In this document: in pieces, positions 4,187 through 51,466 of the stretch
Position numbering within the stretch: the first letter of the stretch is position 1
Layout: every line of letters begins with the position of its first letter
Assembly (NCBI GenBank): GCA_910577205.1
Contig: CAJTMA010000001.1
Span: 137,840-201,839 of the forward strand
Source of the DNA: an uncultured Alphaproteobacteria bacterium
GTDB taxonomy: Bacteria > Pseudomonadota > Alphaproteobacteria > RF32 > CAG-239
DNA length: 64,000 bases
Direction of reading: 5' to 3'
Notes under the pieces: generated by a model
The model's input: the letters and a program-made list of their open reading frames with translations, nothing else
The model's database searches: none
Told to the model about the DNA's origin: nothing
Program-made: the position numbers and the translations under genes

Positions 4187-5461
4187 TTACCGGGAATTTC
4201 CGCCGGGACGCGGGCGCGGTTTTGAACGCGGCTTAGACCGGGGTTTAGCCGGCTGGTTTGCCTGTATGGCTTTTTCCAAACGCTGTTTGGTTTGCGCGTC
4301 AATATTTTTCAAAAATGCCGGGGTTATTGACGGAGCGCCTTTGGTTTTCATTCGCGGCTGGGCTTCAAGACAGGCAATTAAAAGGCGGGCGCGGAATTCA
4401 TCATCTTCAATAGAGGCAAATTCAATCTGGCTGTTATCTTTTGCGGCCTTGGCAACCACATCGGCGAAATCCTTAACGCTCGGAATATCGTCTGTTCCGT
4501 CATCACGAACAACGCCCATGGATAAATTGTATTCGTTGTTGGCTTCCAGATTGAGCTTAGAACCGTCTGCACGAGTAATATCTGCCACAAAATTCGGATT
4601 TTTGGCATCTTCATGATATACAGCCTTATCCCTTGCCGCCACGGCCTGATAATGTTTGCGCCAGCCGTCTTTCCAATTGTCGTTGTTATGCGGCAGAACC
4701 GGCAGGGCATTATCATGCGACACGGCAACAGCTTTGACCAAGCCCGGCATATTTTCCAAAGTTGCGCGCATTGAAGCAATACACTCGTCACAAAACGGCG
4801 GCTGATTTTTCTTTTTGCGCTCCAGCCGCTCTTGTGTCAACCCGATATAACCGCTTTCGCCCATAATACATTTGTCATTGGTGCAGTGTGTGCCCAAATC
4901 CGCGTCATAATGCGTATTGCCCCTTTTGTCATGCGTGGCATTGAGAATATGCCCGAATTCATGCATAAAAATAGTGATAAATAATTCCTTATCATTACAG
5001 GTCTGGGTGGAGAGAACAGCATTAAGCTTTTCAATCCCGTAGCCATAAAAAGACGGTTCTAATTTCTCATTGAGAAGCGTCACAACCAAATCCTGCGAAC
5101 CAGTACGCATCATGTTTTCGGCTTTCAGCTGGCCGTATTTAGCCATATCAACGCCGTTTATGCCTTTTTTGCGATTTTCTGCGGAAGCGGCAAGCAGGTA
5201 CCACTGCTCGGAAGCATAAGGCACAAGATATTTGCCGTTGGGCAGTTTGATAAATTTTTGTTTATAGCCATCGTTCGGCAGGGAAACATATTCATTGACA
5301 TCAATTTCCGATTTATTCTGCGGGCGGCAGTCGCTGAACTCCGCCTTAAATGAGGATTTATATTCAGGAAACAGCGCCAGCATTTCCTCCGCGGCTTCTT
5401 TCGCCCAGAGCTTATATTTCGGATGAGTGCCTGCCGGTGTTTCTATGATTATTTTTTTCAT
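4187..5461 (-). CDS. Archaemetzincin-like zinc metallopeptidase with a ~200-aa C-terminal extension and basic KPRSKPRSKPRPRP tail.
   Basis: HEFGHILNATH (HExxHxxxxxH), then CTNDKCIM (Cx4CxM), then CDEC about 25 aa later. Start overlaps the upstream gene stop (ATGA). Confidence 0.6.
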   Translation of the reverse strand: MKKIIIETPAGTHPKYKLWAKEAAEEMLALFPEYKSSFKAEFSDCRPQNKSEIDVNEYVSLPNDGYKQKFIKLPNGKYLVPYASEQWYLLAASAENRKKGINGVDMAKYGQLKAENMMRTGSQDLVVTLLNEKLEPSFYGYGIEKLNAVLSTQTCNDKELFITIFMHEFGHILNATHDKRGNTHYDADLGTHCTNDKCIMGESGYIGLTQERLERKKKNQPPFCDECIASMRATLENMPGLVKAVAVSHDNALPVLPHNNDNWKDGWRKHYQAVAARDKAVYHEDAKNPNFVADITRADGSKLNLEANNEYNLSMGVVRDDGTDDIPSVKDFADVVAKAAKDNSQIEFASIEDDEFRARLLIACLEAQPRMKTKGAPSITPAFLKNIDAQTKQRLEKAIQANQPAKPRSKPRSKPRPRPGGNSR

Positions 5462-7368
5462 TTGTCTTTTCCTTTGGCGCGCAGCATTTTAAGCAGCGTC
5501 TTTTCTACCGGACGTTCAATCTGACATTTGTGTTTCATTTCTTCGGCATAGCGTTCGCCGATACGCGTTGAGGGGCGTTTGAAATCATTCAGTTTAAAAA
5601 TTTCGCAAACCAAATTGCCTGACACCATACGGCGGCGGCGATTGTCAAAGATGTCACCCAGTTTTCCGGCCTCATAATCAATTTCATCAGGATTTCTGCC
5701 ATCCTGCCGCAACCGCCGGCGGAGGGTTTCCGTTACCCGGCCTTCCGTTTCTTTGGAGGCATCAAACAGCTTAAAGGTATTCTGCCGCTGGCGCTGAATT
5801 AAAATATTATTGGCATCAAAGAAGTAGTCCTGCGCCTGAACATGGCTGAAATAGGCTTCAAAACCTTTGCGGTTAAATCCGGTTTCAGCAGAATTTGTCA
5901 GCTCGGCAAATAATGCAATCTGTTTGAACCAATCAGTTTTGTGATCACCGCATTGTTGTTCAAAATCACGGCTTTTCAGAATATTAGCGCTCTTTTTATC
6001 GCACCAGTAAAGCAAATCGACCATTGGCGGGGTTATGCCAATTTTTTGGGCTTCTATGCCGTCTATCAGCTTGTTATTCAAAACCGACAGAAATTCCCCA
6101 AACTGACGGGTGTCGTTTGTGTTGTCCATTGCCAATTGCCGCGACAAATTGTCTAGTTCTTTATCACCGGTCCGCGGCGCATGATTATTGCTCTTTTGCA
6201 TATTTTCCGCAATGGTTTGTATCAGGCCGGCAGCCGTTTCGCCGGTATCCTGATTAACAATCGTTTCGTATCGGCTGATATCCAGGTAGGCCGGCAAGAA
6301 ATCTTCAGATTGAACATTTTTCAAATCCCCGGCAATCAATGCGGCATTTTCATCGGCTGACGGCTTATCCCCTGACTTAGCGGCCTGATAGTAGTTAAGC
6401 ATATGTCCGACAAGCTCGCTGACACCGATGGTTTCACTGTGTATCATGTCCCTCAAACCGTTAAACTCCGCAACCTCAAGCTCTATCGCTTTGGTACGCA
6501 GAAGCTCCCGTTTGGTCATATCTGGTGTCGGAACTTCCTTCAAAATGCCCAAAGCCTCATTAAAACGGCGCGGCGACCATTCCGATGTGAGAATTTTATT
6601 ATTGTACCCTATCAGCCCATATTCGCCGAAAGCACAATCATGTTCGGCGGAAAGCGTGTTAAAATCAGGCGTTTTATTAATCATCGGAATGACATATTTT
6701 TCAAAACCTTCGGCCATCTCCGGCGTTAAATTGCCCTCATTGAGATAAGTCATGTCAATTTCTTCACAGACTTTAACGAGGGTTTGGGGGTCATCCAACT
6801 TTTGTATTGCCTTATTCACCATCCCCAAGCGGTTAAAATAGGCAGAGGGATTGTCTTGATAAAGCGAGCTAAAAACCTGCAATGCCAGCGGAAACTTGTC
6901 TTTCAGCCCCAGCCCGTTATCCGGAGAGGTTATTCTTTCAGCCGTAATCGCCATAAATTTATGCAAACTATCATCATTCAGACGCTCCGGCGCATAAGTC
7001 ACCATTGCTTTGGCAGACATTGCAAAAATTGCCCGACATAAGGCTTCATCTTTGGGTGTTTCAGTGTTAGGCATAACACGGTCTGCAAAAATCTCTGAAT
7101 AGCCGACTAACTCAGCCAGCTGTTGCGGCTCTAAGCGGTTAATTTCACAAAAGCGGCTGTTCCAATTGCGTGTGACCGCGCCCTCTTTTATTTCAGGGTC
7201 GAAATAACTGTCCATACCCAAATTATAAGCGATTTCAGCCATATTTTTGGCCGCAGAAGCTGCCGCTCCGGCACTTATTCCGGGATGTTGCCGTTTCATC
7301 TCCTCTATGGCTTCTTTGGCCGGAGCTGTTCTTATAAAAACGGCATATAATTCATCAAAATCGCTCAT
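5458..7368 (-). CDS. Hypothetical protein, 636 aa. No motifs I recognise. Translationally coupled to the metzincin gene.
   Basis: Long uninterrupted ORF. 4-nt overlap with the downstream gene. Confidence 0.65.
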   Translation of the reverse strand: MSDFDELYAVFIRTAPAKEAIEEMKRQHPGISAGAAASAAKNMAEIAYNLGMDSYFDPEIKEGAVTRNWNSRFCEINRLEPQQLAELVGYSEIFADRVMPNTETPKDEALCRAIFAMSAKAMVTYAPERLNDDSLHKFMAITAERITSPDNGLGLKDKFPLALQVFSSLYQDNPSAYFNRLGMVNKAIQKLDDPQTLVKVCEEIDMTYLNEGNLTPEMAEGFEKYVIPMINKTPDFNTLSAEHDCAFGEYGLIGYNNKILTSEWSPRRFNEALGILKEVPTPDMTKRELLRTKAIELEVAEFNGLRDMIHSETIGVSELVGHMLNYYQAAKSGDKPSADENAALIAGDLKNVQSEDFLPAYLDISRYETIVNQDTGETAAGLIQTIAENMQKSNNHAPRTGDKELDNLSRQLAMDNTNDTRQFGEFLSVLNNKLIDGIEAQKIGITPPMVDLLYWCDKKSANILKSRDFEQQCGDHKTDWFKQIALFAELTNSAETGFNRKGFEAYFSHVQAQDYFFDANNILIQRQRQNTFKLFDASKETEGRVTETLRRRLRQDGRNPDEIDYEAGKLGDIFDNRRRRMVSGNLVCEIFKLNDFKRPSTRIGERYAEEMKHKCQIERPVEKTLLKMLRAKGKDK

Positions 7369-7529: not shown

Positions 7530-10010
<2,481 letters not shown>

Positions 10011-10040
10011 ATATTATTAGGAATATCTGACAAACAAAAA

Positions 10041-10070
10041 AGGAAAGCAAGAAGTGCTTTCCTTTTTTTA
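10041..10070 (+). terminator. Rho-independent terminator after gyrB.
   Basis: aggaaagca ... tgctttcct hairpin followed by TTTTTT. Confidence 0.7.
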
Positions 10071-10368
10071 TAAGGCATGGGCAGATGTATATACTCAGCC
10101 CGTCAGTCCGGTTGGCGAAGCCTTGAAGCCTGGAGAAAACGTTTCGGAAGGGTTAATACCTGCTGTGCCATCCGGCGGATGTTTATGGATGTTTCACTTC
10201 TCAGCATATTCTGCACGAATAAAATATTTTATACCCAAATAATACAGTCCAAACTATTTACTTCCATTAGCCAAAAATAAACCCTACGCCCATAATTGTT
10301 TGACACTTTGCAGCGCGTATGATATTCTAAATTCAGGTTTTGATTTAGTAATATCTACGAGGTGTGCT

Positions 10369-11172
10369 ATGAAAATGTCCCTGTTCGTTTCTGTCTTTTG
10401 TTGTGCAACGTCCTATTCTCTTATGGCTCAAGCTGACTGTGTGCCAGCGCCGAATTGTGAGGAACTGGGCTTTACTGTGGATGCCTCAAAATGTTCCGGA
10501 GCGGCTCTTAAATGCCCGTGGGATTTATCCAAAGCGGCCTGTAAGGAAAAAGAAGAAATAGAAATTGGTTCAATTCTCTATGGCGATGGGACGGTGGCGA
10601 GCGGTGTCGTAACCGGTAAAACGCCGATAGGTGTGGTCTTTGATGTTGAAAATCGTTTGGCTGTAGCATTAACAAATGTAAAGAAAGATGGTACAGCTGG
10701 AAGTGAAAATATGTATTGGTCAAGTAGTTATTGTGATACGCAGGGATTACAAAATTGCAGCTCTTCAGAGATTTCACTAGGTACAGATTTAATCCCGATT
10801 ACTTGTGGGGTGGATGGACGATTGAATACCAATGCGATATTAGCAAGTACTTGTAACGGCACAACTTATGCAGCTAACGCTACCAACGACTACCAGCCGG
10901 CAGGCTGCACAAAAGACTTTTGTAAAAAGAGCAAGTGGTTTTTACCCAGTTTGAGAGATTTGCAGAATATTTATTTACAAAAAACACAAATTGATGCGTC
11001 ATTGACACTTTTGAACAGTAATGGCGCAACAACTATAAGGAATAGAAATTATTGGTCCTCTACCGAGTGCAATATTAGTGGCGCGTGGGACTTCGGTATG
11101 AGTAATGGTTATAGAAACAACGACTATAAGTACACTGGCAATCTCTTCGTCAGACCGGTTCTCGCTTTTTAA
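10369..11172 (+). CDS. Secreted Cys-rich protein with a C-terminal DUF1566 (Lcl C-terminal-like) domain. Paralog of 49396 and 50447.
   Basis: Signal peptide MKMSLFVSVFCCA...AQA. CxPxCExLG N-terminal motif shared with 50447. WFLPS..DL..IY ... YWSSTE ... VRPV C-terminal pattern. I chose the start at 10369 in preference to the ORF-track 10300. Confidence 0.6.
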   Translation: MKMSLFVSVFCCATSYSLMAQADCVPAPNCEELGFTVDASKCSGAALKCPWDLSKAACKEKEEIEIGSILYGDGTVASGVVTGKTPIGVVFDVENRLAVALTNVKKDGTAGSENMYWSSSYCDTQGLQNCSSSEISLGTDLIPITCGVDGRLNTNAILASTCNGTTYAANATNDYQPAGCTKDFCKKSKWFLPSLRDLQNIYLQKTQIDASLTLLNSNGATTIRNRNYWSSTECNISGAWDFGMSNGYRNNDYKYTGNLFVRPVLAF

Positions 11173-11186
11173 CCGTATAGCTCAAA

Positions 11187-11229
11187 ATAATCCCCCCTAT
11201 TCTCAAGGGGGGGGGATTATCTTTTTATT
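11187..11229. terminator. Bidirectional terminator hairpin between convergent genes.
   Basis: aatcccccc...ggggggggatt stem flanked by A/T runs. Confidence 0.6.
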
Positions 11230-11575
11230 GCATAGGTTGAGTTGTCGTGGTTGAGATTGTTTCCTGAATCATATAAGCATTGCCTGTTGCAGGGGCTTGC
11301 GGCTGCGGCTGATTACCATCCGGCAGCGGCGCAACGTCTACGCCGGGATCACCGGGCAGCGGCTGCATTGCATTTTCTGAAGCGGCCGCGCCTGACGGAG
11401 CAATCGGCTGAATCGGATCTACAACCGTATAGCCTTCTTGGATGATTAAAGTATTAGTCCCCTGCGGCGAACCGACATCTGCGGAAACCTGATTGGCCTG
11501 CGCATTGGCATTACGGCTGTCGCAACCCATCAGGGCAAGCGCGGACACGCTTAAAGCCATCATTATTTTTTTCAT
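11225..11575 (-). CDS. Small lipoprotein, hypothetical.
   Basis: MKKIMMALSVSALALMGC lipobox. Pro/Gln-rich. 116 aa. Confidence 0.5.
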   Translation of the reverse strand: MKKIMMALSVSALALMGCDSRNANAQANQVSADVGSPQGTNTLIIQEGYTVVDPIQPIAPSGAAASENAMQPLPGDPGVDVAPLPDGNQPQPQAPATGNAYMIQETISTTTTQPMQ

Positions 11576-29220: not shown

Positions 29221-29258
29221 AAACAAAACCGTCCGGCGGATAAACCGGACGGTTTTCA
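29221..29258. terminator. Bidirectional terminator (ccgtccggcggataaaccggacgg with flanking T/A runs). Part of inverted-repeat arm A.
   Basis: Hairpin with U-tracts on both strands. Confidence 0.7.
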
Positions 29259-30016
29259 GATGACGGTAAGCTGTGCCTTATTTTGAAAGTTCAGTTATCC
29301 GCTTTGCCGCAATCCGTCCCCGAAAATTCTCTCACTTTTTTCAGGGATAAAAACTTTATCAGGCTTCCAAAACCACGCTGACATTAAGCTGATAATAGTC
29401 CAGCAGATAACCGATATCCATATTGGTTATGGCGGCGCGTCCGCTTTCGATTTTCTCTAGACTTTTAAAGTTGACTTTGGTTTCGCGGCAGACTTGCTCC
29501 CGGCTGATGTTGCGCTGCGAGCGTATCATTAGCAGCCAAATGCCGAGCGTCCGCCCGATGGTGGTTTGCAAATCTTTGGGTGTGATTTGCAGCGTTACTT
29601 TTTCTAACATTCCAAGCTCCTGTTTTGTTTTGGGATATCATAAAATCCCTACCTAACAATTCCGACTATATTTGCTGTTTCGGCAGCTGTCGCAACCTCA
29701 CAACAAAAAGTCTCATTGCTTATCTCAACAAAACAATTTTCAAATTGTTTTGTTTTCGCAGCCCCTTAATTTTAAGGGGAGGTTAGGTAGGGATTAATTT
29801 CTCCAAACCCTGTAAATTAAAACAAAAACCGCCTTAAATTTTAAGGCGGAGGAGCTGAAAAACTGCCAATAACAGTCAGTCTTATTCGTGCTTACGCCTT
29901 ATATCGACCACTCCCCCGAAAAGGAGGATATTTTTTTATTGGAGATGTTTTTCAGACACCACAACCGATCTCCCGGCTGCGAGAATTATATTAGGTGATT
30001 ATTTTTATTTTGCAAT
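29222..30016. repeat. Arm A of an imperfect large inverted repeat. Contains an XRE HTH gene plus ~400 bp upstream. Roughly 85-90% identity to the reverse complement of 36339-37270.
   Basis: Aligned by eye: terminator, HTH gene, gagcttggaatg start context, and upstream attgcaaaataaaaata...ggttgtggtgtctgaaaaacatct block. Confidence 0.75.
29359..29610 (-). CDS. XRE-family helix-turn-helix transcriptional regulator, 83 aa, copy A.
   Basis: ISREQVCRETKVNFKSLEKIESGRAAI HTH. 79 of 83 residues identical to the 36878-37129 product. Confidence 0.75.
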   Translation of the reverse strand: MLEKVTLQITPKDLQTTIGRTLGIWLLMIRSQRNISREQVCRETKVNFKSLEKIESGRAAITNMDIGYLLDYYQLNVSVVLEA

Positions 30017-35966: not shown

Positions 35967-36494
35967 GTGTTTCTCTCTTTCAAAATGTTAGCCAGCGCAG
36001 ATTATACGCCGTTTTTTATCATCTAAAACTTTTTCGTATTATATATAATAAATGAGAATAAAAAAGCACTATTTTTATGCTTTATGCAGAAAATAAAACA
36101 TCTTACCCCAATAAATATATTTACGAGCGCTGAACGAATCAGGCTGATTAAACGGCGGTTGGGATGCGGACGAAAAATGTAAGCTAACAGCGACGGGGCT
36201 TGGGAATAACATTTTTCCCCTTAATTTTAAGGGGAGATAAAGAGAGGTTTAATATGAATAAAGTCTATTTTGCATGGATTCTTCGTCGCACAGCTTCTCA
36301 GAATGACGTTTTAGGAGGGGAGAGCAACCATAAAATATATTGCAAAATAAAAATATTCACCTAATATAATTTTCGCAGCCAAGAGATTGGTTGTGGTGTC
36401 TGAAAAACATCTTTCTTACTAAAATATCCTCCTTTCGGGGGAGTATACGATATAAGCCATTGGTCGAATAAGTATGACTGTCGTGAACAGTTGC

Positions 36495-36762: not shown

Positions 36763-36877
36763 ATTGCTCCTCCACCTTTTTCTAAAAAGGTGGTTTTGTT
36801 TTTAAAATCCTTTCTCTGCCTCCCCTTAATTTTAAGGGGAGGTATGGAGGGGATTAATAAACCTAAAGGAGCTTGGA

Positions 36878-37129
36878 ATGTTAGAAAAAGTAACGCTGCA
36901 AATCACACCCAAAGATTTGCAAACCACCATCGGGCGGACACTCGGTATTTGGTTGATGATGATACGCTCGCAGCGCAACATCAGCCGGGAGCAAGTCTGC
37001 CGCGAAACCAAAATTAATCCGAAAAGTCTGGAGAAAATTGAAAGCGGCCGTGCTGCCATAACCAATATGGATATCGGTTACCTGCTGGATTATTATCAGC
37101 TTAACGTCAGCGTGGTTTTGGAAGCCTGA
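36878..37129 (+). CDS. XRE-family helix-turn-helix transcriptional regulator, 83 aa, copy B.
   Basis: Near-identical paralog of 29359-29610. RBS aaaggag. Confidence 0.75.
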   Translation: MLEKVTLQITPKDLQTTIGRTLGIWLMMIRSQRNISREQVCRETKINPKSLEKIESGRAAITNMDIGYLLDYYQLNVSVVLEA

Positions 37130-37230
37130 TAAAGTTTTTATCCCCGAAAAGCGGGAGAGAATTTTCGGGGACGGATTGCGGCAAAGCGATAACTGAACGT
37201 TCAAAATAAGGCACAACTTACCGCAATCTG

Positions 37231-37270
37231 AAAACCGTCCGGTGTTATCCGTCGGACGGTTTTGTTTTTA
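37231..37270. terminator. Bidirectional terminator shared by the HTH gene (+) and recR (-).
   Basis: ccgtccggtgttatccgtcggacgg hairpin with T-runs on both strands. Confidence 0.7.
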
Positions 37271-39915: not shown

Positions 39916-39934
39916 TAAAATTCTTCTTAAAAAA

Positions 39935-40025
39935 GGTGGAGGACGAATGACCTTAACCGCTTTCGTTACGGCTGCTTCCTTCCGGACCTGACCGGGTTGG
40001 CGAAGAGTTAACCCACCATCCTCCA
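39935..40025 (-). ncRNA. ffs: Signal recognition particle RNA (4.5S RNA).
   Basis: Minus strand contains GGUCAGGUCCGGAAGGAAGCAGCC (conserved domain IV). 5' ggaggatgg pairs with 3' cgtcctcc. Followed by TTTTTT. Classic position upstream of dnaX. Confidence 0.85.
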
Positions 40026-40127
40026 TAAATGTGATTTTCAGCCTTAAACGCCGGAAATCCTGACGGGATTAATATCGTTCATATCCGGCGATTTTTCAAG
40101 GAAAAAATCAATAATTAACACCTGAGC

Positions 40128-49227: not shown

Positions 49228-49395
49228 AAAATTTTAATAGCCTTTGGTAAAGATATAGTTACTCCAAAACATAATTCTTTTAGTCTACTCCTTTTAGCCA
49301 TAAAAAAAAGCAACCCTTATTGAGTATTGACAAATATAGATAGCTATGGTACATTGAGAACAGGCTTTGATTCAGTTATATTTGTGAGGTGTATT

Positions 49396-50316
49396 ATGAA
49401 AATAATCAGCAAACCTTATCAATTGTCTTTGGCATTCTCCTTAGTTCTGCCTCTGACAATTTTTGCATTTTTATCTTCGGCATATGCCTTCCTCGTAGAT
49501 ACAAGCCAAAACCAAGCCTTTGAATCACGGCCTCAGGCCGCCGCAAATTCAAAGCGGCCTGTTTCTTTTCCTGCTTTTAAATTAGCTTCCGTCAATTTTA
49601 TTACCGGTGGCGGAAACCTTGTTTTTTCAGCGCCAGACTTTACGGATAAATCCGTTGAAACCTGTAAATCTCTTGGATTTAATAAGACTTCCTGTGCTTC
49701 CGGCGTGCCGGGAAACACCTGCCCTTACAACTCTTCTTATTTTTCTCAATGCTGCGATGAACGTTACAAATACTCAAAATCCAAATGCGTTTATCCGAAT
49801 ACTATCAGCGGTGATTCCTGCGGCGGTAAATATATGTGCTACTGTGACCGCAGTTTATACAAAGTGACGGCTTCTTCTTGCAAAGCACCGTTAGTTCCGG
49901 CTTCCGGCAGCGGCAACAGCTGTGTTGAAGACGGCGTGATTTACTATTCTTCCTGTGTTTGTCCGGCAACTTATACGCAAGTTTGCAACGGAAATAATAT
50001 GGAAGGCACGGGCCAAGGTTGCACCATCGGCGGAATAACCAAATATATATCTTGCCAATGCAAAGCCGGATACAATCTGACCTGCGCCAATTCTACCCCG
50101 GAAAATGCATCTGATTATTGCCTGAAAGACGGCATTAAATATTACAGCCGCTGCAAGACCTGCCCTAATGCCTGCAAGTTGAACAGCTGCCCGGCAGGCG
50201 TGAGCTGCAGCAAAGAGGAATGCTCGGGAAAATATTGTGCCAATAGCTGTTCAACCGGATATGTGGATTTAGAAAATTACTGGTGTAACGGCGCTTTGAA
50301 GTGTTTGCTCCGCTGA
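49396..50316 (+). CDS. Secreted Cys-rich repeat protein. Paralog of 10369 and 50447.
   Basis: Signal peptide. Repeated C..DG..YYS.C.C modules. The 5' leader is near-identical to that of gene 10369. Confidence 0.6.
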   Translation: MKIISKPYQLSLAFSLVLPLTIFAFLSSAYAFLVDTSQNQAFESRPQAAANSKRPVSFPAFKLASVNFITGGGNLVFSAPDFTDKSVETCKSLGFNKTSCASGVPGNTCPYNSSYFSQCCDERYKYSKSKCVYPNTISGDSCGGKYMCYCDRSLYKVTASSCKAPLVPASGSGNSCVEDGVIYYSSCVCPATYTQVCNGNNMEGTGQGCTIGGITKYISCQCKAGYNLTCANSTPENASDYCLKDGIKYYSRCKTCPNACKLNSCPAGVSCSKEECSGKYCANSCSTGYVDLENYWCNGALKCLLR

Positions 50317-50446
50317 CAGAATATTTGGGGCAAATGAGGGAAATCCAAGCAGAAACCGTCACAAGGTTGAGATAGTGCCGCTTTAGCGTTAGATGCCTCA
50401 CTTCGTTCAGCATGACGAAGAGAAATAAAAAAAGAAAAGGAGAAAG

Positions 50447-51466
50447 ATGATGAATAAAATATGTAGTTTAAATTTGGGGACGGCTTTGCTGGTTTCGTCG
50501 GTATTCTCTCCGGCTCAAATTGTTCTGGCACAGAGCTGCACTATTCCGCCGACCTGTGAAAGTTTGGGATATGACAAGAATCCCAGTGATTGTGTTGACA
50601 AAGCCATTTTGAAATGCCCGCTAGATAAAACCAAAATTTTTTGCTCTAACGGCGTGGCCGACGGTGTTGCTCCTGATGACGGAAATAATCCTCTTATGGT
50701 TGGTTCTATCGCTTATTCTGACGGATCATGGTCGACTAAACCTAAGTCTGACAAAATACCTATCGGCGTTATATTTGATATATCCGGTTTAGCTGTTGCT
50801 TTAGACAATTATACATTGGTAAACTACTCTTGTTCCAATCCATGCCAAAGTTTTACGCCAACAGTATGTTCCGGATATTCTGCGGGAGGACTTAATTTAT
50901 GGAAAAATCCGACTTTGCAGCAATTGCAATTAATGTATGATAAAAAAACCAAATTGGACAGTGTTCTTTCTGCTCTTTCAGCCAGACCTTTGGCTTCTTC
51001 AAAATTGGTTTATGGCACAGATGGGAGTCGAGTGGCCTATCTTGAATTTGATAAGGGGACTATTGGCACATCATTTACAGAAACACCTATTCGCTGCGTT
51101 ATTGACATCTCATCCATTAACGCAGCACCTCCCCCAACCACTCCTTACAAAGTTGGGGATACCTATTATAAAAACGGAATAGCTTGCGGCAAAATTGCAA
51201 AACTTGACAGCACCGGGAAACACGGAACAGTAATTACTTCCGGTGCTTATGTGGGAACACAAAGCGAAACATCTAATTACTGCATCAACAAATCGACCTG
51301 CGGACTAGACTGGGGTATCGCTTCGCCGGAAAGTATAAAAAACACAGTGGACTTCTGTAGCTATTTTTACACATCAGCGGGGTGCTGCCACCTTTGCGGC
51401 GGTCAATCCAATAGAGTTTGCGGAATTAGTGGTTGCACAAGCGGGTACTGTGAAGCTTCTTTTTAA
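50447..51466 (+). CDS. Secreted Cys-rich protein with a DUF1566-like segment. Paralog of 10369 and 49396.
   Basis: CTIPPTCESLGYD...KCPLD N-terminal motif matches gene 10369. IGSIAYSDG...PIGVIFD...LAVAL block is shared. WKNPT..QL..MY ... IRCV follows. Confidence 0.6.
   Translation: MMNKICSLNLGTALLVSSVFSPAQIVLAQSCTIPPTCESLGYDKNPSDCVDKAILKCPLDKTKIFCSNGVADGVAPDDGNNPLMVGSIAYSDGSWSTKPKSDKIPIGVIFDISGLAVALDNYTLVNYSCSNPCQSFTPTVCSGYSAGGLNLWKNPTLQQLQLMYDKKTKLDSVLSALSARPLASSKLVYGTDGSRVAYLEFDKGTIGTSFTETPIRCVIDISSINAAPPPTTPYKVGDTYYKNGIACGKIAKLDSTGKHGTVITSGAYVGTQSETSNYCINKSTCGLDWGIASPESIKNTVDFCSYFYTSAGCCHLCGGQSNRVCGISGCTSGYCEASF

Follow-up and report, generated by a model that had tools for sequence, protein, structure and literature searches.

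The window analysed here, a 64,000-nt stretch of DNA from an uncultured alphaproteobacterium (RF32, CAG-239), contains three genes for Cys-rich proteins (A, B, and C) that can be understood as two units of a head/partner system, each placed behind a copy of a common cassette, with a head tip of the type rewritten by diversity-generating retroelements (DGRs). Taken as a whole, we consider this explanation quite likely to be right. The two transcription units would belong to a lineage-specific, many-copy family with relatives in Candidatus Scatocola and CAG:495, and each appears to open with the same ~110-nt cassette, composed of a TTTAGCCAAA box, a promoter, a short unstructured 5'UTR, GAGGTG, and ATG. 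The canonical unit would comprise a Cys-rich 'B' protein followed by a 'head' (Sec signal, Cys module, and Lcl_C/DUF1566 domain), the two being sometimes fused; unit 2 (B then C) would be such a pair with a degenerate head, while unit 1 (A) would be a solo head. The proteins would be exported through Sec and presumably disulfide-bonded in the periplasm; display at the surface of the cell or release from it would be most likely, and there the lectin-like head may bind a ligand. The tip of the head would correspond to a DGR variable region, as shown in related genomes by an A-type gene followed by bAvd, an Asn-codon-rich template repeat (TR), and a reverse transcriptase (RT). For annotation, three 'hypothetical proteins' would become a head/partner system, and with this defined set of genes one can ask in what way a gut alphaproteobacterium that is uncultured and has a small genome varies its surface recognition.

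Genes A, B, and C and the cassette upstream of A and B

A previous reading of this DNA, made from the sequence only, had pointed to ORFs at 10369, 49396, and 50447 that encode proteins with dense Cys patterns and signal peptides. The Cys content was indeed 5.2% for A, 9.5% for B, and 5.9% for C, compared with a median of 1.0% for the ORFs of at least 200 aa in the window. All three proteins have, as judged by eye, a signal-peptide-like N-terminus of the basic-hydrophobic-AxA type, in agreement with the earlier claim. The signal appears to end with SLMAQA (followed by DC) in A and with VLAQS (followed by C) in C, and a canonical lipobox ([LVI][ASTVI][GAS]C), which we looked for at these two ends, was absent from both. 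The genes and their parts are as follows.

10369-11172 (+): gene A, solo 'head' protein, 267 aa
10369-10434 (+): signal peptide of A, read from the sequence
10438-10542 (+): 5-Cys module of A, C..P.C..LG[FY]..C..KCP.D..C
10552-11169 (+): Lcl_C/DUF1566 C-type-lectin-like domain of A
49396-50316 (+): gene B, Cys-rich partner protein, 306 aa
Residues 1-31 of B (+): signal peptide, followed by a conserved N-terminal region of low confidence
Residues ~86-306 of B: disulfide-rich core of beta-hairpins, 29 Cys
50317-50446 (+): B-C intergenic spacer, with an AAGGAG SD ahead of C
50447-51466 (+): gene C, degenerate 'head' protein, 339 aa
50537-50644 (+): Cys module of C, the same as in A, preceded by a signal peptide
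50696-51112 (+): shortened CLec/DUF1566-like domain of C, without the hypervariable tip
51143-51463 (+): second small domain of C (VGDTY..G..G.V...D.TG.HG) and Cys-rich tail

Gene A lies next to gyrB on one side and to a convergent small ORF and a HAD hydrolase gene on the other, while the B-C pair is bordered by a divergent gene for an SNase-domain protein and by a convergent parB. Both loci belong to the core chromosome and not to an island. The small ORF that converges with A (11225-11575, minus strand) encodes 116 aa, with a Pro/Gln-rich body behind a lipoprotein-type signal (..ALMGC); Pfam gave no match, and the synteny of this ORF is kept in loci L001 and L213.

The cassette was found ahead of A and ahead of B, with the following elements.

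10257-10368 (+): cassette copy 1, ahead of A (promoter scan)
10267-10281: upstream box of copy 1, TTAGCCAAAAATAAA
10300-10305: -35 element of copy 1, TTGACA
10320-10328: TG-extended -10 element of copy 1, TGaTATTCT
10342-10353: 5'UTR box of copy 1, GATTTAGTAATA
10359-10364: SD of copy 1, GAGGTG
49283-49395 (+): cassette copy 2, ahead of B
49294-49308: upstream box of copy 2, TTAGCCATAAAAAAA
49327-49332: -35 element of copy 2, TTGACA
49347-49355: -10 element of copy 2, TGgTACATT
49369-49380: 5'UTR box of copy 2
49386-49391: SD of copy 2, GAGGTG

The ~90 bp upstream of these two genes had been described as almost identical, but they are only 67% identical over positions -110 to -1, as compared with 47 +/- 6% for random pairs (~67-70% overall), and the best stretch reaches 81% over 32 nt, with a single-sequence E of about 1e-3. 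The likeness nevertheless survived proper alignment. A profile made from the cassettes of other genomes only gave exactly two matches in the window, upstream of A (E 7e-10) and of B (E 4e-11), and the cassette was found in other MAGs when the profile was built from the two copies of the window. The TTGACA element that had been noticed ahead of 10369 and 49396 is present in both copies, where a 17-nt spacer separates it from the TG-extended -10. The 28 distinct cassettes that we compared have a clear block consensus, with blocks kept at 90% or more, namely TTTAGCCAAA, TTGACA, TATG.TA, TT.AGT.ATA (in the 5'UTR), GAGGTG, and ATG, in this order, and the start of the TTTAGCCAAA box stands at a fixed distance of 33 nt ahead of the -35.

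In every readable case, across many genomes, the cassette is followed by an A-type, a B-type, or a fused gene of the family. The likeness between the upstream regions of A and B stops 8 nt into the coding sequence. Since A and B are not homologous (see below) and the cassette precedes A-type, B-type, and fused genes alike, we rejected the earlier proposal that gene and regulatory region had been duplicated as one. Scanning metagenomes with the promoter pattern yielded many chance matches, and the full cassette was found in 23 of 117 stretches after filtering with the profile. In 11 of these 23 metagenome contigs the assembly ends 3-15 codons past the ATG of the cassette, which indicates that the cassette is an assembly-breaking repeat with divergent continuations. 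The human-gut contigs that end 3-8 codons after this ATG are L099, L145, L162, L197, L109, L166, L161, L112, and L169.

In our reading, the cassette would be a strong sigma-70 promoter that has a box upstream, either protein-binding or UP-like, and is followed by an open translation-initiation region; transcription is predicted to start at about 10335 and 49362. It might instead be a regulatory RNA (riboswitch or attenuator) or an invertible, phase-variable promoter, a possibility for which one may invoke the conservation at 90% or more of the 5'UTR box TT.AGT.ATA in the 28 cassettes and the multi-copy nature of the family, which recalls phase-variable surface families. However, an Rfam scan of the whole window showed nothing at the leaders, and the folding of five leaders revealed no structure in excess of shuffled controls (z-scores of -0.7 to +0.8), so that the riboswitch/attenuator idea was dropped. 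An invertible promoter was rejected because no inverted repeats flank either cassette, and no recombinase adjoins them. It is thus very improbable that the cassette is anything of this kind rather than a plain promoter with its translation-initiation region. The sole Rfam match in the window was a small SRP RNA (RF00169, 60.9 bits) at 39932-40027 on the minus strand.

Head domain, Cys-rich partner, and the two-gene unit

A and C share, as had been noticed, a Cys block of the CxPxCExLGy...KCP.D type, and their N-terminal ~110 aa are 37% identical (BLASTP E 2e-13). When profiles of the two families were compared with hhalign, residues 2-216 of C aligned with the A family with a probability of 99.7% (E 1.9e-25), which shows that both proteins consist of a small Cys module and the same domain, shortened in C. 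The nature of this domain was indicated by Pfam PF07603 (Lcl_C), which matched residues 171-264 of A with 30.4 bits (E 5.1e-7), a score that falls short of the gathering score of 34.9 bits. Lcl_C was also matched by all 22 aligned members of the A family (best E 1.3e-14) and, weakly, by 9 of the 21 members of the C family, while B and C themselves gave no match with the Lcl_C HMM. Structure prediction agreed with this assignment: the AF2 model of A (pLDDT 79.8, residues 60-267 confident) retrieved with Foldseek 4EPS (E 4e-5) and 8Q4E, the Lcl C-terminal domain (E 4e-4), followed by C-type lectin-like domains, and 4EPS and 8Q4E were also reached from A by sequence profile. From these models and profiles, we conclude that the domain of A has the Lcl_C/DUF1566 C-type-lectin-like fold.

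Because the Pfam family matches, the fold, and the profile comparisons concur, the domain assignment stands for A and, by homology, for C, but not for B. Accordingly, the DUF1566 segments that the sequence-only reading had recognised hold up in A (a sub-gathering match, with all 22 relatives matching) and in C by profile-profile comparison only, and the idea of a secreted or surface-located, ligand-binding DUF1566-like family is retained for A and C, with 22 of 22 Lcl_C matches and the 4EPS/8Q4E fold, and given up for B. The grouping of the three proteins as one family of paralogs fails for the same reason: A and C are homologous, but B is unrelated to them. We had considered B as a paralog or a distant DUF1566 relative of A and C and rejected this, BLASTP giving E > 0.7 and hhalign a probability of 6.8%, at one short motif. 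No further paralogs were found in the window by tblastn.

B does contain the repeated Cys modules that had been described in it: hairpin repeats of the type C..[DG]G...Y..C.C are present at residues 176 and 209, with a variant at 242. Its AF2 model is confident over residues 80-260 and gave no structural match in PDB or BFVD, and its sequence matched no Pfam family. An exhaustive profile search retrieved 463 cluster representatives among 1.84 billion. As far as sequence and model comparisons go, B is a Cys-rich protein for which no relatives of known function or fold were detected. Some other B proteins end with the Cys module of A and C (E ~1e-10); a mini-HMM of this module gave no significant match with the B protein of the window.

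The family is confined to MAGs of uncultured gut Alphaproteobacteria (human, chicken, and deer sources), among them Candidatus Scatocola and CAG:495, with 12-14 copies per single MAG among the loci returned. A B-type domain lies directly upstream of an A-type domain in 32 of the 40 loci with enough upstream sequence, and in five loci the two are found in one ORF (fused examples of 539-723 aa). From these natural fusions, the two proteins would be predicted to form a complex directly with each other. The succession of B and C in the window thus represents the canonical two-gene unit, and B and C together are one unit of a type that is conserved across related genomes. Searching the B-C spacer (50317-50446) disclosed neither the family cassette (profile search) nor an intrinsic terminator on the plus strand, and the two genes are probably co-transcribed. 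A has a cassette to itself and is a solo head, an arrangement seen also in L018 and in every close homolog that was fetched.

Other arrangements were also observed. L203 encodes on its minus strand (9649-11088) a 479-aa protein with an Lcl_C match, its own cassette, and possibly two head domains, 7 kb from another gene of the family. Two solo heads lie 4 kb apart in L205-L208, in which a gene for an XRE-type HTH protein is found directly upstream of a family gene. Some paralogs are mosaic: L007 and L024 are 99% identical over positions 1-150 of the CDS and 57% identical after it, and the corresponding values for L009 and L021 are 96% and 59%. Such 5' ends point to recombination among paralogs.

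The variable region of A and retroelements in related genomes

Homologs of A that are otherwise near-identical differ completely in the last ~35 aa, apart from the fixed scaffold WSSTE-x5-AW-x-F-x-M-xx-G-x-R-x4-K-x6-VRPV. The features at this end of A are the following.

11053-11148 (+): DGR-type variable region (VR) of A, scaffold WSSTE..AW.F.M..G.R....K with 20 variable codons
11149-11172 (+): conserved 3' end of the VR, GTCAGACCGGTTCTCGCTTTTTAA, at the IMH position of DGR targets
11188-11216: G+C-rich hairpin, which begins about 16-19 nt past the stop codon of A

At the nucleotide level, the scaffold reads TGGTCCTCTACCGAG(N15)GCGTGG...GTCAGRCCGGTTCTCGCTT. In the last ~35 codons of A, all 20 variable codons are NNY, for which the chance is ~7e-7 at the third-position composition of the body of the gene. 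Variation was clear in a homolog cluster of 964 members (P0074), in which each of the 15 sequences sampled had a unique VR on an identical body. In 64 VR segments, 73% of the 4-fold codons end in C or T, as compared with 39% in the gene bodies (Fisher p 7e-51), and 69% of the Ser codons are AGY, as compared with 48%. This is a signal at synonymous sites, which selection on the amino acids cannot produce. Strain-level hypervariation and assembly breaks are to be expected at 11053-11148. No hypervariable tip was seen in C, and the VR scaffold pattern had 0 matches in viral contigs.

The stretch 11149-11172 is invariant among the VR variants and aligned with the ends of the TRs of relatives, which suggests that this GTCAGACCGGTTCTCGCTTTTTAA end acts as the IMH of A. 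The hairpin at 11188-11216 is a terminator and possibly serves also as a DGR target-recognition hairpin. In active targets that adjoin a TR, the GC hairpin has a loop of 4 nt and lies 24-27 nt past the stop codon; as the loop is longer in A than in these hairpins, their equivalence is uncertain.

DUF1566 proteins are a recognised class of DGR targets ('CLec2'), exemplified by LdtA of Legionella (PMC5758913, PMC4159848). When we looked for Asn-rich copies of the scaffold, six loci proved to have template repeats at a distance of 600-800 nt downstream of their A-type genes, with bAvd (E 4e-18) and an RT (RVT_1, E 6e-18) encoded by the ORFs that lie between and after these TRs. In eight MAG loci, tblastn placed Avd and/or RT after the A-type gene. 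Adenine-specific mismatches between TR and VR were verified in five loci (L010, L023, L025, L028, and L044), with counts at TR adenines of 24/26, 20/22, and 23/26, the exceptions lying past the stop codon. What these loci of related genomes contain are DGRs of the canonical type, with targets of the DUF1566/'CLec2' class. Remote targets were found in two genomes. One of them is BRZ_RR__bin74, where the TR is also fitted by a second VR, located on another contig, with 25 adenine mismatches and one other, and in BRZ_MQ__bin8, which has two tandem TRs, at least seven VRs fit one TR with three or fewer non-adenine mismatches. The tandem TRs of BRZ_MQ__bin8 (L044) are located at 4521-4637 and 4795-4912, and each of them matches a different subset of remote VRs. 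We found no paper linking DGRs with RF32.

In the 64-kb window, an adenine-tolerant scan found no TR for A, and tblastn found neither RT nor Avd (best E 0.04). The same scan showed no TR within +/-10 kb of the homologs P0013, P0017, and P0005, and a scan for Asn-rich motifs showed none in loci L201-L213 (which include P0006, P0010, and P0003). In sum, these six close homologs of A had no TR within 6-10 kb. A bears the full footprint of a DGR, but TR, Avd, and RT are absent from the 64 kb, which makes it either a remote target of a DGR situated elsewhere in the genome or a relic target.

The VR of A was identical in the two full-length variants (P0001 and P0315; 14 contigs). A different allele was present in a conspecific contig (L213), which has the same gyrB-A-HAD synteny and is 97.3% identical over 10.5 kb of flanking sequence. 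Its A allele is 84% identical, with differences along the gene body and 43 mismatches in the 120 nt of the VR, and it differs also at some third-codon C/T positions; one TR alone does not explain these differences. The lack of DGR machinery near A and its homologs, the single VR of the two variants, and the L213 allele argue against A being a live target. A has clearly been rewritten in the history of the species, and a DGR elsewhere in the genome may still act on it, or recombination among paralogs may now prevail.

Could ordinary evolution account for these genes, without any retroelement? A, B, and C would then be Cys-rich DUF1566 adhesins paralogous to each other, produced when a gene was duplicated along with its promoter. 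The kinship of A and C, the lack of DGR machinery in the window, and the invariance of the VR of A in P0001 and P0315 are in line with this, but B has the cassette though it is unrelated to A and C, the homology of the cassettes ends at codon 3, the synonymous NNY bias is seen in the C-terminal segment only (p 7e-51), and homologs carry verified TR-VR-RT-Avd cassettes. We therefore regard this alternative as improbable.

Another possibility, which deserves more credit although we would not favor it, is that A is a fossil target that has lost its DGR or its IMH, and that its alleles vary by recombination or gene conversion among paralogs, with the conserved cassette and 5' coding ends as homology anchors. 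This would agree with the L213 allele, which differs over the whole length of the gene (84% versus 97.3% for the flanks) and at third-codon C/T sites, with the mosaic paralogs (99% versus 57% for L007/L024; 96% versus 59% for L009/L021), with the repeat-like breaking of 11 of 23 metagenome contigs just past the cassette ATG, and with a VR that is static across 14 contigs. Against it, NNY is intact at 20/20 positions in A, suggesting recent rewriting or strong constraint, and sister genomes have remote targets on other contigs.

The preferred explanation, two head/partner units with a DGR-type head tip, can be extended to a bolder proposal, which we put forward tentatively and hold to be rather unlikely in its entirety. 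These gut Alphaproteobacteria would encode a dozen or more two-part surface receptors, each made of a lectin-like head and a Cys-rich stalk whose fold has no known relatives, and expressed from one conserved promoter cassette, and a single chromosomal DGR, with two TRs in some cases, would rewrite several of the heads in trans, A being a remote target. If true, this would represent a co-regulated, hypermutable repertoire of receptors, and through the cassette its members could be regulated in common or recombine with each other.

Comparison with known systems and other features of the window

Among the hypervariable proteins of the human gut microbiome, DUF1566 proteins diversified by DGRs are the commonest, and, to our knowledge, their ligands and cellular context are mostly unknown. 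The proteins described here are of a kind that is already known, the CLec2/DUF1566 DGR variable proteins. The Cys module, the obligate and sometimes fused Cys-rich partner without known fold, the common cassette, and the multi-target DGRs with two TRs in sister genomes are new in this family.

The closest parallel is with the LdtA class of DGR proteins (DUF1566/DUF823/Fib_succ_major, 'category d', CLec2; PMC5758913), which likewise have a C-terminal VR on a DUF1566-type lectin-like fold, with AAY-templated NNY codons between fixed scaffold residues. The relatives of A resemble them further by carrying bAvd, TR, and RT directly downstream and by their adenine-specific TR/VR mismatches. LdtA of Legionella pneumophila is, however, a lipoprotein, whereas A has, as read from its sequence, a signal of the signal-peptidase-I type and no lipobox. 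A differs also by its additional N-terminal Cys module and conserved disulfide-type cysteines, and its family by the two-gene unit with a Cys-rich partner; furthermore, there is no DGR in the window.

The C-terminal domain of the Legionella collagen-like adhesin Lcl (PDB 8Q4E) is an extracellular, glycosaminoglycan-binding trimer with a C-type-lectin-like fold and no disulfides (PMC11162425). A matches it through Pfam Lcl_C and in its fold, but lacks collagen repeats and scores 14.8 bits with the NF046116 equivalog, for which the cut-off is 500; the Lcl domain differs further in its lack of disulfides and of hypervariation. In structure, A was matched best by the Bacteroides ovatus 'fimbrial protein' BACOVA_04982 (4EPS; 260 columns, E 4e-5), in which N-terminal domains of the fimbrillin type take the place of the Cys module and the B partner, and which shares 15% sequence identity. 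4EPS has served as a template for DUF1566-type DGR targets of the gut (PMC4159848).

As in BRZ_MQ__bin8, several paralogs that are not adjacent are targets of one chromosomal DGR in the case of TvpA of Treponema denticola (PMC4891356, PMC5758913). TvpA has a CLec fold of the FGE-sulfatase type and not of the DUF1566 type, and it is not known to have two tandem TRs, a common promoter cassette, or a Cys-rich partner gene. The arrangement of many divergent genes behind one conserved promoter/5' region can be compared with that of the Borrelia erp and mlp loci. These are multigene surface families with a common 'upstream homology box'; the comparison is an analogy only, the organism, the proteins, and the sequences being unrelated.

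Other features were noticed in the window. A 636-aa ORF without Pfam family (5458-7368, minus strand) adjoins a 424-aa ORF (4187-5461, minus strand) that has weak matches with reprolysin-like metalloproteases (E ~2e-4, below the cut-off). An inverted repeat of ~380 nt, with arms at 29244-29621 and 36867-37243 that are 93% complementary, surrounds a 7.2-kb housekeeping block. The two arms code for one and the same 83-aa protein of the XRE-type HTH kind, at 29359-29610 (minus strand) and at 36878-37129 (plus strand), with weak matches to HTH_31 and HTH_19. Near these arms, a short palindromic element, TCCCCTTAATTTTAAGGGGAG, is present in three copies, at 29761-29808, 36216-36263, and 36821-36868.
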